NCBI GenBank assembly: GCA_963713685.1
Contig: CAVQMS010000001.1
Location: 511,203 to 575,202, forward strand
Direction of reading: 5' to 3'
Source of the DNA: Vulcanimicrobiota bacterium
GTDB lineage: Bacteria; Vulcanimicrobiota; Vulcanimicrobiia; Vulcanimicrobiales; Vulcanimicrobiaceae
DNA length: 64,000 nt
The notes under the pieces are model-generated. The model did no database searches, was not told where the DNA came from, and worked only from the letters and a program-made list of their open reading frames with translations. Positions 38,611 to 42,160 of this stretch are shown here, piece after piece (within the stretch, counting starts at the first letter, position 1; each line of letters starts with the position of its first letter). A program made the translations under genes and the position numbers.

Positions 38611-40542
38611 TTAGGCGGCTCGCACGCGCAGCACGTCGCCCTCGAGAATAACGCTCGCCCCCGAACCCTCCCGCAGTTCGCCGCGCAGCAACGCCGTTGA
38701 AAGCGGCGTGGAGACGTAATGCGAAACCGTGCGCTGTACGTAACGAGCGCCGCTACCGGCGCCCATTGAGACGCGGGCGAGATAGAGCTTGGCCTCATCC
38801 GACAGTTCGAGCGTTACGTTTCGCGCGCCCAATCGCTGCGCCAGCGCGTCCACGTGGATGGTAACGATCGCTTCGATTTGCGGCAATCCTAAGTCGGCGA
38901 AAGGCACGATCTCGTCGATCCGATCCAGAAGTTCGGTCCGCAGCGCGATGGGAACTTCGTCGTCTTGCAGGTTTGTCGTCAGAATGATGAGCGCATGCCG
39001 AAAATCGATCGTGCGGCCCTTCGCATCGGTGACTCGCCCATCGTCCAAAATCTGCAGCAGGATGGACGCGACGTCCGGATGCGCCTTCTCGAGCTCGTCG
39101 AACAGCACGACGCAGTAGGGCCGGCGACGTACGGGTTCGGTCAGCTGACCGGCTTCGTCGTGCCCGGCGTATCCCGGCGGAGCGCCGAGCAGGCGTGAAA
39201 CGGTGTGCGGTTCGGTGAACTCCGAAAGGTCGATGCGGACCAGCGCGGCGTCGCTGCCGAAGAGCGCCTCGGCCAACGTCTTGGCGAGTTCGGTTTTGCC
39301 GACTCCACTGGGCCCCCGAAAAAGAAAGCTCCCCAGAGGTTTGCGCGGATCGTGCAACCCCGTGCGCGCCCGCCGAATCGCGTCGGATACGGCGGCGATG
39401 GCGCGGTCTTGACCGATCACGCGCTTAGAAAGGAGCTGCTCGAGCTCGAGAAGGCGGCTGGCCTGCGACGAAGTGAGCGAGTCTTGCGGTATCCCGGTCC
39501 AGCGCGTGACGACGCCCGCGACGTCCTCCCGGGTCACGCGCGGCAGCTCGACGGCGCCTTTGTTCGCCAAAGCGACGGAGGCCGCGGCCTCGTCGATGAG
39601 ATCGATAGCTTTATCCGGCAAGAACCGGTCCGCGATGAATCGGGCCGAGAGCTGTGCCGCGGTTTCGATCGCTTCTTCGTCGATGGTTACGTGATGATGC
39701 CGCGCGTAGCGTTCGTGCAGACCGCGCAGAATCTCGATCGTTTCCTCGATGCTGGGTTCCTCGACCATGACCGGCTGAAACCGGCGTTCCAAAGCCGCAT
39801 CGGATTCCACGTATTTCCGATACTCGTCGAACGTGGTCGCGCCGATGCACTGCAAATCACCGCGCGCCAGCTCCGGCTTGATCATCGAGCTGAGGTCGAG
39901 CGGAGCCCCTTCGGCGGATCCCGCACCGACCAGCGTGTGCAACTCGTCGATAAAGAGCACGATGTCGCGAGCGCTGCGCTTCACCTCGTCCAGAATGCGT
40001 TTGACGCGGCCCTCGAACTCGCCACGGTACTTCGTTCCGGCCACCAGCGTACCGAGCGACAGCGCGAGAACCCGTTTACCGCGCAACGAGGGCGGCGCAT
40101 CGCCCGCGACGATTCGGGCGGCGAGGCCTTCGACGATTGCGGTCTTCCCGACGCCGGGCTCGCCCACGAGACACGGATTGTTCTTGCTGCGCCGCGCGAG
40201 GATTGAAACGATGCGATCGATTTCGCGATCGCGCCCGATGACGGGATCCAGCTTACCGTTGCGTGCTAGCTCGGTGAGATCGCGTGAAAACGCTGCCAGC
40301 GTCGGCGTCCCGCCGCGGAAGCGTTTGCCGAGCTCGTCGAGCGGCGAAGTGCTTCCGCTGCCTTGCATCCTTTCGGCGAGCAGAGCGCTGCCCGCGATTA
40401 GGCCGGCCGCCGCTAACGCGGCGCCCACGAACGGCAGCGCGCTCGTGGCCGCGCGCTTCTGCGCGCAGGGACCGCAAAGGCGGCGTCCGGCATACGTGGT
40501 AACGGCCGGCCGAGCGGCACAGCTTTGGCACTGCGAAGTCAT
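38611..40542 (-). CDS. atypical two-ring Clp/Hsp100-like AAA+ ATPase with N-terminal zinc ribbon and hydrophobic helix
   Basis: D1: [15 protein letters not shown] and [14 protein letters not shown]2: [17 protein letters not shown] and [14 protein letters not shown]. The N-terminus MTSQCQSC...LCGPC is followed by [22 protein letters not shown]. No Clp_N repeats and no coiled-coil M-domain. The region after TTN is too short to hold an IGF/LGF ClpP loop. Confidence 0.85.
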
Positions 40543-40588
40543 CGCTTAGTGTACCTGGGGCGCCTCGCCAGGTTTCGCACCTGGCGGT

Positions 40589-41287
40589 TTAGGGCTCCGC
40601 CGTGAAGACCATGCTGACCGAAATCGTTACGTTGACGTTGGATTGATCGAATTGCGTGGGCACGTTGGCCACCGCAGCGGCGCGCATCAAGGGCACCGGC
40701 CCAGAGGGCTCGCCTCCCAGCTCGATGCTCTTGATTCCAACGATGCGAAGGTCTGCGGCCCGGGCGATCGCCTCGGCGTTCGCGCGCGCTTCCGCGACGG
40801 CTTTTGCGGTGGCTTGCTGGCGCGCCACCGCGGGGTCCGACAAGCCGAACGCGACGCCGTTGATCGCGGTGGCGCCGGAACTCATGCAGGCATCGCTAAC
40901 GCGCCCGGCATCGGCGATCCGCCGCACCTTTACGGAGAAGCTGCGCGACACCGTGAAACCATAGCGCTCGTCCGAAGCCGGCGGAGCGTTCCGCGGCCGA
41001 GGATTATAGCTTACGTTATAGTACGCGAGGGTGACGTCGTTACGCGCGATGCCGGCCTTCTCGAGCGCGGCCACGATTCGCCCATATATGGCGTTGTTGT
41101 CCGACACGGCGTCGTCGGCGTTTTGCGCGTTTGTCTCAACCGCCGCGGTAACCGTCGCAATGTTGGGCGCCAACGACACGCTGCCGGTTCCGGAGGCGGT
41201 AATTTCCGTTCCGGCCGCTCGCGCGATGGCCGCGCCGGCGCTCGCAAACGCGAAGACGCCGAGCAGGCAAATGAAAGTGCGCTTCAT
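40589..41287 (-). CDS. SIMPL (DUF541) domain periplasmic protein
   Basis: Signal peptide MKRTFICLLGVFAFASAGAAIARA. The SIMPL-like start ITASGTGSVSLAPNIATVTAAVET and the overall length both fit the family. Confidence 0.75.
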   Translation of the reverse strand: MKRTFICLLGVFAFASAGAAIARAAGTEITASGTGSVSLAPNIATVTAAVETNAQNADDAVSDNNAIYGRIVAALEKAGIARNDVTLAYYNVSYNPRPRNAPPASDERYGFTVSRSFSVKVRRIADAGRVSDACMSSGATAINGVAFGLSDPAVARQQATAKAVAEARANAEAIARAADLRIVGIKSIELGGEPSGPVPLMRAAAVANVPTQFDQSNVNVTISVSMVFTAEP

Positions 41288-41657: not shown

Positions 41658-41900
41658 ATGGCCTACATCATCACCGAACCGTGCATCGGGACCAAGGACA
41701 AGTCGTGCGTTGACGTTTGTCCGGTGGATTGCATTCACGGCAAGGATGAAGACGAGATGCTCTTCATCGATCCCGAGGTCTGCATCGATTGCGGCGCGTG
41801 CGTTTCGGCTTGCCCGGTCGAGGCGATCTTCGCCGATTCCGACGTGCCCGAGAAGTGGCAGAATTACACCGAAATCAACGCTGAATATTTCAAGAAGTGA
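41658..41900 (+). CDS. fdxA: 7Fe-type ferredoxin ([3Fe-4S][4Fe-4S])
   Basis: MAYIITEPCIGTKDKSCVDVCPVDCIH and CIDCGACVSACPVEAI. 80 aa. Confidence 0.9.
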   Translation: MAYIITEPCIGTKDKSCVDVCPVDCIHGKDEDEMLFIDPEVCIDCGACVSACPVEAIFADSDVPEKWQNYTEINAEYFKK

Positions 41901-42160
41901 ATCCGCAAATCTCCGGCGACGCGTTTGACTCGTTTTTTGCGTGGGCGCCATGGGTCATCGGCGCGGCCATTTACTTCGCATTCTACATCGCGAAGCGTCG
42001 GGAGTGCGCGCCGCAACCGGCGGCGTCGAGCGGTCAGACCTATGCATGCGCCGGTTGTGGGCGGCGAGGATCGCGCGAGCAGATGGTGCCGCAGGATCAC
42101 GGCGGCGCGGTGGGCTGGTACTGCCCGCACTGCGCGAGCGCGCAGGTACCCGCTACGTAG
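41897..42160 (+). CDS. small membrane-anchored zinc-ribbon protein (hypothetical)
   Basis: GTG 41897 overlaps the fdxA stop (GTGA). One hydrophobic helix (WAPWVIGAAIYFAFYIA) is followed by CAGC...(24 aa)...CPHC. Confidence 0.5.
   Translation: MNPQISGDAFDSFFAWAPWVIGAAIYFAFYIAKRRECAPQPAASSGQTYACAGCGRRGSREQMVPQDHGGAVGWYCPHCASAQVPAT

Follow-up and report, generated by a model that had tools for sequence, protein, structure and literature searches.

A two-ring Hsp100 ATPase of the class Eremiobacteria with an N-terminal zinc ribbon and hydrophobic helix

Gene and domain architecture

The subject of this analysis is a Clp/Hsp100 ATPase gene in a 64,000-nucleotide stretch (hereafter the window) of a Vulcanimicrobiota bacterium genome (GenBank assembly GCA_963713685.1, contig CAVQMS010000001.1, positions 511,203 to 575,202). 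The coding sequence occupies 38611..40542 on the minus strand, as do all the features of the protein given below, and encodes a two-ring ATPase of 643 amino acids, as judged from the open reading frame (ORF) and its translation, Pfam, NCBIfam and homologues. The protein starts with a Cys4 zinc ribbon, CQSC-x14-CGPC (residues 5-26, 40465..40530), recognised from its invariant cysteines, profile matches and an AlphaFold2 (AF2) model. An uncharged hydrophobic helix rich in Ala, Gly and Leu comes next (residues 31-56, 40375..40452), delimited by Kyte-Doolittle hydropathy over 19 residues (KD19), by alignment and by the ratio of nonsynonymous to synonymous polymorphism (pN/pS), and followed by a conserved E57-R58 pair. 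The linker behind it (residues 57-78, 40309..40374) is mostly variable according to alignments and pN/pS, is modelled with low confidence (predicted local distance difference test, pLDDT, <50) and includes in alignments a semi-conserved basic motif (a PLEWAKRLR variant) ahead of TPTL. The first AAA+ module with its lid (D1, residues 79-330, 39553..40308) and the second AAA+ module (D2, residues 337-545, 38908..39534), both assigned from Pfam and a motif table, are connected by a direct short junction (residues 319-336, 39535..39588), identified by alignment with the genome's own ClpC and ClpB and with orthologues. Within D2, the segment after sensor-1 (residues 522-541, 38920..38979) is shortened in alignments by about 33 residues, and the protein ends with a D2-small C-terminal domain (residues 553-628, 38659..38886).

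The four Pfam matches, AAA (PF00004, residues 124-237), AAA_lid_9 (PF17871, 264-330), AAA_2 (PF07724, 401-532) and ClpB_D2-small (PF10431, 553-628, 4.7e-16), are all above their cut-offs and follow the class I Clp/Hsp100 order D1-lid-D2-D2-small. Neither Clp_N nor UVR was among the 25 best Pfam families shown for this protein. In alignment with the genome's own ClpC and ClpB, residues 1-78 stand where these carry a Clp_N region of about 150 amino acids, and the whole M-domain is gone, with AAASV running directly into ALANKG at the site where ClpB, ClpC and ClpE have their coiled-coil M-domain. The 33 residues deleted after TTNLQD comprise the entire insertion that holds the ClpP tripeptide, including the DIGFRPQ loop of ClpC, and cover the position of the IGF/VGF/IGL ClpP loop. 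All three deletions (N-domain, M-domain and ClpP loop) are common to 10 of 10 orthologues from three families. A hidden ClpP loop or M-domain was considered and rejected, since neither would fit into the alignment with the genome's ClpC and ClpB and 15 further sequences; the sole tripeptide of this type, LGL at residues 549-551, is outside the loop position and not conserved. As read from Pfam, the alignment with its own paralogues and the motif table, which agree, the gene is a two-ring Hsp100 without Clp_N, M-domain or canonical ClpP-docking loop. This is what an earlier note on the window's sequence had proposed, and neither a ClpP loop nor an M-domain, which it had named as possible counter-evidence, emerged on alignment. 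The note was also right that the docking insertion is missing after TTN, but the segment is not of 13 residues: about 11 separate N524 from the conserved RxELLxRID helix.

The genome (3.2 Mb in 2 contigs, 96% complete) also has genes for ClpP, FtsH, a canonical ClpB and a canonical ClpC, the last with two Clp_N repeats, about 70 amino acids of M-domain and the DIGFRPQ loop. Because ClpC with its IGF loop, ClpB, ClpP and FtsH are already present, the gene is, by its sequence, best described as an extra specialised paralogue.

The catalytic residues of both rings are in place. The motif table locates Walker A at K133 and K416, Walker B at D199-E200 and D482-E483, the D1 arginine fingers at R253/R254, the D2 arginine at R541, the D2 sensor-1 at N524 and sensor-2 at R600, and the pore loops KYRGEFE and GYAGH both keep their tyrosines. 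Because both rings and both pore-loop tyrosines are intact, the protein is predicted to be able to thread polypeptides. In D1 the catalytic and pore-loop motifs do not vary within the family, and D1 is, from this pattern, the family's invariant motor. Divergent orthologues came from nine genomes of other genera than the window's (four of the same family, two of the second family of the order and three Eremiobacteraceae, one of these being Candidatus Eremiobacter antarcticus). The D2 Walker B glutamate is replaced by Asp or Asn in three of these nine, and the D2 sensor-1 asparagine by His or Thr in six, both residues being intact in the window protein. The erosion of D2 is seen in L039-L045 (second family, Eremiobacteraceae and genus g11), where sensor-1 reads MTTH, LTAH or FTAT and Walker B reads FDDVD or FDNLE.

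Translation start and selection on the N-terminus

Homologues form more than 120 clusters that are 83-97% identical and almost all 643 amino acids long, and the sources of the close ones name Candidatus Cybelea, Baltobacteraceae and Eremiobacterota. In each of the nine divergent orthologues the only plausible start lies 1-6 codons ahead of the first cysteine, with GGAG-like sites upstream in three. The orthologues have a common layout, CxxC-x(11-22)-CxxC followed by basic residues and an uncharged Ala/Gly/Leu helix of 20-26 residues, with [DE]-R as its usual end and the linker and TPTLxxFSRDLT behind it. A set of 18 diverse sequences shows no change at the four cysteines, A42 or G51. Across 30 genomes of the window's genus, with a synonymous divergence of about 0.55, pN/pS is 0.38 in the ribbon, 0.098 in the helix, 0.29 in the linker and 0.092 at the start of D1. 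The helix is the most constrained N-terminal element, on a par with the AAA core.

An internal start at M59, which the earlier note had raised as the case that would remove the ribbon and the helix, was rejected, as M59 lacks conservation and purifying selection acts on the codons upstream of it. The start at M1 was accepted for these two reasons and because a start near the first cysteine is conserved across families. By this comparison, the ribbon and the helix are translated and under selection; the zinc ribbon and hydrophobic stretch noticed earlier are real and conserved, the four cysteines being invariant across three families.

The zinc ribbon and a soluble alternative

The ancestral ribbon pattern is CxxCGxRPAT(x)...GGR...LCxxC, with 22 residues between the cysteine pairs. 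The intervening hairpin is shortened to 14 residues in the window's genus and to 11 or 19 in other lineages, and these shortenings are apparently independent in several lineages. In the AF2 model, residues 1-33 form a beta-hairpin and a helix (pLDDT 80-89), for which Foldseek against the PDB retrieved only generic small zinc ribbons (E>2). Comparison of the N-terminal profile with the PDB gave McsA as the best match (8wtb_B, E=7.7e-4, residues 5-39 to 4-38), with ClpK/ClpG N1 (8p66_B, E=0.03) and ClpE (29hb_b, E=1.3) behind it, and the pattern CxxCGxxPAT...LCxxC is common to the ribbon and these matches. The ribbon therefore resembles the McsA/ClpG-N1/ClpE type, the profile E-values being marginal. 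The N-domains of McsA, ClpG (N1) and ClpE are described as homologous zinc-binding cores (PMC10641755, PMC13125188).

This likeness, missed by the earlier note, supplies a concrete soluble rival to a membrane role. The protein would then act on its own in solution as a disaggregase or unfoldase like ClpE and ClpG; its ribbon and hydrophobic stretch would together form an N-domain that binds aggregates or misfolded proteins with six-copy avidity, and its helix would never enter the membrane. Such a function would agree with the profile matches and with the ClpG N1 domain, in which V17 and L21 of the first strand bind aggregates through hydrophobicity and avidity (PMC10641755). It would also agree with ClpE, in which a Phe patch straight after the zinc core is essential to aggregate targeting and refolding proceeds without ClpP (PMC13125188). 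The topology puzzle discussed below would disappear as well. Nevertheless, ClpG V17 and L21 correspond in this family to a conserved Asp and Arg (in a hidden Markov model alignment read by hand, whose register may be off by one), and in the same alignment the window's genus does not have the part of the hairpin that holds them. Moreover, the shortening of the hairpin (x11, x14, x19) indicates that the ribbon surface is not the conserved element. Unlike the short ClpE and ClpG patches, the uncharged segment has 20-26 residues, a fixed length, a KD of about 2.0 and a near-invariant sequence, and such an apolar segment would render a soluble protein aggregation-prone. The heat-shock operators looked for, CIRCE and the CtsR box, were both absent from the window, which also speaks against this alternative. 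We consider it possible but rather unlikely.

Distribution and evolution

A 70-position profile of the N-terminus was used to map its phyletic distribution, as the earlier note had suggested. Among the class Eremiobacteria genomes that are at least 90% complete, one copy was found in 107 of 110 (96/96 in the window's family, 3/3 in the second family and 8/11 in Eremiobacteraceae). In about 50 genomes of other classes there was no match, bar two ribbon-only matches in small frames. Among 1.84 billion cluster representatives, 81 proteins matched at E<=1e-3; all 19 at E<=1e-10 belong to the ribbon-helix-Hsp100 family, as full-length proteins (653 and 662 amino acids) or contig-end fragments, and the rest of the 81 are ribbon-only, McsA-like proteins. 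On the basis of these searches, the ribbon-helix-Hsp100 fusion is a single-copy core gene of the class Eremiobacteria, soil bacteria known only from metagenomes and noted for life on atmospheric trace gases. A weak second ribbon-plus-helix match (E=9e-6) was found in another genome of the same genus at G073:C1:660414-660584, inside an open frame of 601 amino acids, which may encode a further protein with this kind of N-terminal module.

A maximum-likelihood tree built from 28 Hsp100 sequences recovers the family as one clade (100/100) with a long stem, in which the branching agrees with taxonomy and whose affinity to ClpC is weak (44/52). E. coli ClpA does not group with it, and its very long branch (2.34) makes its placement unsure. 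Other classes of Eremiobacterota have Hsp100 proteins without the M-domain, with a Clp_N-like domain and a longer D2 insertion, which form a separate 100/100 clade. Because of this separate clade, the M-domain was probably lost independently in the two groups, and the Clp_N-bearing proteins were rejected as ancestors of the family. These proteins (L046-L051; the ORFs of L048 and L049 have 1029 and 995 amino acids) show no obvious IGF/IGL tripeptide in the D2 insertion, and some have very long low-complexity C-terminal tails rich in Pro, Tyr and Gly.

The locus search with the Eremiobacteraceae protein retrieved Candidatus Eremiobacter antarcticus and otherwise unrelated Hsp100 types from Pseudonocardiales and the candidate phyla radiation. 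In Pseudonocardiales (L066, L069 and L071; Actinophytocola, Lentzea and Saccharothrix), these are Hsp100 paralogues whose N-terminus lies about 40 residues ahead of D1 (MADDFFGFGSNP...), with no Clp_N, an M-domain of only about 45 amino acids and no ClpP tripeptide. In Saccharibacteria and Parcubacteria (L073, L075 and L077), they are two-module Clp-like proteins of about 550 amino acids without N- or M-domain, whose divergent D1 has no KYRGEFE pore loop.

The hydrophobic helix and its topology

The 26 uncharged residues at positions 31-56 have a mean KD19 of 2.06, compared with a maximum of 1.18 in the AAA body. Across the orthologues KD19 is 1.9-2.35, and the uncharged core of 20-26 residues is always bracketed by charges. 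About 19% of the long ORFs of the genome reach a KD19 of at least 2.0, roughly the share expected for membrane proteins. We infer a membrane association of this Hsp100 from hydrophobicity alone. The earlier proposal of a ClpP-independent, possibly membrane-associated unfoldase is upheld for the absent canonical ClpP loop, its membrane part being of this conjectural kind.

The flanks of the helix confirm the topology puzzle pointed out in the earlier note. In 10 orthologues, the counts of Lys and Arg within 15 residues are 4, 5, 4, 2, 2, 2, 3, 2, 1 and 0 on the N-terminal side (sum 25) and 1, 3, 2, 3, 4, 4, 4, 2, 2 and 3 on the C-terminal side (sum 28). The 30-residue N-tail of the window's genus carries a charge of +5 with zero acidic residues, and other genera have RRRRR (one genus) or RARR immediately ahead of the helix. 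According to the positive-inside rule, basic flanks are strong cytoplasmic retention signals. The charge pattern resembles a topological "frustration" that would favour monotopic insertion or a non-membrane role.

A span with the N-terminus inside and the C-terminus outside was ruled out on energetic grounds, from general knowledge, as the ATPase would be exported. The opposite orientation, a true single span as in Msp1 or Bcs1 with the Cys4 knot in the periplasm, is the sole bitopic arrangement that leaves the ATPase in the cytoplasm; the core length suits one span, and in Eremiobacteraceae the N-flank has 0-2 positive charges compared with 2-3 on the C-flank. However, the +5 N-tail of the window's genus and the RRRRR or RARR sequences elsewhere would act as cytoplasmic retention signals, a basic zinc ribbon would need to cross the membrane, and an oxidising periplasm is not where a Cys4 zinc site with cytoplasmic homologues would be expected. 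We regard this topology as improbable.

The invariance of A42 and G51, together with a nearly invariant G40 and GxxxG-like spacing in the alignments, raises a further alternative, in which the helix would serve oligomerisation or regulation, as a six-helix bundle or as a pseudo-substrate plug on the D1 pore, and take over the control that the M- or N-domain normally exerts. The extreme conservation within the genus is beyond the needs of a generic anchor, and the loss of the M-domain takes away the usual mechanism of repression (PMC13125188, PMC12583610). A fully apolar helix is, nevertheless, atypical of soluble bundles, and the AF2 monomer is uninformative for this region. We think it quite unlikely that this, rather than membrane or substrate binding, is the primary role of the helix.

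Gene neighbourhood

A SIMPL/DUF541 gene with a signal peptide (40589..41287, minus strand; Pfam SIMPL, 1.4e-39) lies 46 nt upstream of the Clp start and may be co-transcribed with it. A promoter and terminator scan of the gap between the two genes gave nothing above chance. The gap contains a hairpin, CCAGG-TGCGAAA-CCTGG (40568-40584, minus strand), between the SIMPL stop and the Clp start, which has no T-run and was not called a terminator. Beyond SIMPL are a GlsB/transglycosylase-associated gene, a ferredoxin gene and an ORF of 87 amino acids (41897-42160, plus strand), whose GTG start overlaps the ferredoxin stop codon and which encodes one hydrophobic helix followed by a CAGC-x24-CPHC ribbon. 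An NHL lipoprotein gene converges downstream of the Clp gene.

The earlier note had taken the envelope- or stress-related neighbours as support for its reading, but this support is weak. SIMPL adjoins the Hsp100 gene in three of the six orthologues of the order (L037, L039 and L040) and not in L038, L041 or L042-L045, and is thus facultative; ferredoxin is near in five of the six (L037-L041). In Eremiobacteraceae the neighbour is instead a DeoC-type aldolase gene. The 87-amino-acid ORF had no Pfam match and no tblastn match beside any of the nine orthologues from other genera, beside which no conserved partner gene of any kind was found.

A possible membrane-proximal unfoldase

Our preferred explanation, to which we would give a probability of about 0.5, is that the gene encodes a lineage-specific class I Hsp100 hexameric unfoldase that acts independently of ClpP and of Hsp70/M-domain control, with the helix holding the hexamer at the membrane. 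The anchorage would be on the cytoplasmic side of the inner membrane, with the helix most likely monotopic or otherwise non-spanning and less likely a classical span; a non-spanning anchor is favoured by the basic charge of both flanks and by the need for the domains on either side to lie in the cytoplasm. The six helices could be bundled through their small-residue motifs, and a flexible tether of 20-40 residues would leave the D1 entry pore turned towards the membrane. Clients might be membrane-proximal or membrane-embedded proteins, or aggregates at the membrane, that would be pulled through the rings and released unfolded into the cytoplasm rather than degraded.

Several observations weigh against a membrane role. 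The basic charge on both flanks of the helix fits neither single-span orientation and argues against insertion as a span, and a helix that is not amphipathic seldom inserts monotopically. The hydrophobicity is marginal, as a summed Hessa-type insertion cost, approximate since it uses simple central values, is +0.5 kcal/mol for the window protein and -0.6 to +2.1 kcal/mol for the orthologues. In the AF2 monomer the helix is modelled at low confidence (pLDDT <50 for residues 35-79). The presence of FtsH in the same genome means that a membrane extractase is not obviously needed, and the search beside the orthologues gave no membrane partner. Finally, the ribbons of ClpE and ClpG work in soluble proteins, with hydrophobic residues, in binding aggregates (PMC10641755, PMC13125188).

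A more specific and more doubtful form of the membrane-proximal reading is that Eremiobacteria have, in this two-ring Hsp100, a bacterial equivalent of Msp1/ATAD1. The six invariant Gly/Ala-zipper helices would form a monotopic or half-spanning membrane collar immediately above the D1 pore. Driven by D1, the ring would pull out membrane proteins, or intermediates stalled in translocation or insertion, and set them free in the cytoplasm, no protease being involved. The erosion of D2 catalytic residues in some lineages would then be a shift towards a D1-only motor.

To our knowledge, all Hsp100 proteins studied so far are soluble and are steered by an N-domain, an M-domain or a ClpP loop. In the ribbon-helix family all three steering parts are absent, and a membrane-like helix stands in their place. 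If the helix is an anchor, the family would represent a protease-free, double-ring, membrane-proximal unfoldase in bacteria and a new handle on the clearance or remodelling of inner-membrane proteins in diderms beside FtsH. A soluble protein, made up of ribbon, helix, D1 and D2, would be more minimal than any other known stand-alone Hsp100 and would test which parts of ClpE and ClpG disaggregation really requires. The family is compact, with clear mutational targets in the four cysteines, A42, G51 and E57-R58, and should lend itself to expression in E. coli. It is a previously unstudied branch of the Clp/Hsp100 family and a variant of a known machine type; a targeted, non-exhaustive literature search found no paper on it.

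Comparison with known Hsp100 and membrane AAA+ systems

The best NCBIfam models all score below their cut-offs, namely ClpB (TIGR03346, 806 vs 1232 bits, in two stretches), ClpA (TIGR02639, 677 vs 993), TssH (TIGR03345, 667 vs 885) and ClpG and ClpK (625 and 623 vs 1900). The closest PDB chains are B. subtilis ClpC (654 bits), T. thermophilus ClpB (639), ClpE (517), ClpA (489) and ClpL (431). A 696-amino-acid chain in PDB 8xon was considered as a relative without M-domain and rejected, as it is Streptomyces ClpC1 from the ClpC1:ClpP1P2 complex. The highest sequence similarity is to the genome's own paralogues, D1 being 66% identical to ClpC and D2 59% identical to ClpB. These paralogues, however, both have Clp_N and the M-domain, and ClpC has the IGF loop, whereas the 643-amino-acid protein has none of the three. 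The same differences separate it from ClpB in general, with its long coiled-coil M-domain and Clp_N, and from ClpC, with its two Clp_N repeats, short UVR-like M-domain and IGF loop.

In E. coli ClpA the two rings are likewise joined directly, without an M-domain, and it is the only reference aligned in one stretch (residues 79-631), both with TIGR02639 and with the PDB chain of ClpA. In contrast to the window protein, ClpA has Clp_N, binds ClpS and carries an IGL ClpP loop.

ClpE of Firmicutes (E. faecalis and B. subtilis; PDB 29hb) is also a class I Hsp100 with a Cys4 ribbon in place of Clp_N. Its ribbon has the CxxC...PAT...LCxxC pattern, with the x22 spacing of the ancestral family members, and is followed by hydrophobic residues and a disordered linker to D1; its action is adaptor-free. 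On the other hand, the hydrophobic residues of ClpE are a short Phe/Leu patch and not an apolar helix of 20-26 residues, and the AAA body of the window protein is no nearer to ClpE than to ClpC or ClpB. Moreover, a coiled-coil M-domain and a VGF ClpP loop are present in ClpE, which forms proteases with ClpP (PMC13125188).

The stand-alone disaggregases ClpG/ClpK (N1, PDB 8p66) combine an N-terminal zinc-binding mini-domain with ClpP-independent action, as is proposed for the window protein, but ClpG has N2 (Clp_N), an M-domain and a C-terminal extension, none of which is present here, and it has no apolar helix. A ClpV/TssH identity is contradicted by the score below cut-off and by the neighbours, which are SIMPL, GlsB-like, ferredoxin and NHL lipoprotein genes and not those of a type VI secretion system.

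Outside the Hsp100 proteins, Msp1/ATAD1, FtsH and TorsinA offer a possible parallel, with a hydrophobic N-terminal segment as the tether of an AAA+ ring whose entry pore is turned towards the bilayer. TorsinA has a monotopic hydrophobic N-terminus on an AAA+ module of the Clp-D2-like type, although it is luminal and non-threading. These are all single rings, homologous to the two-ring Hsp100 of Eremiobacteria only at the level of the AAA+ fold, and FtsH has its own protease.

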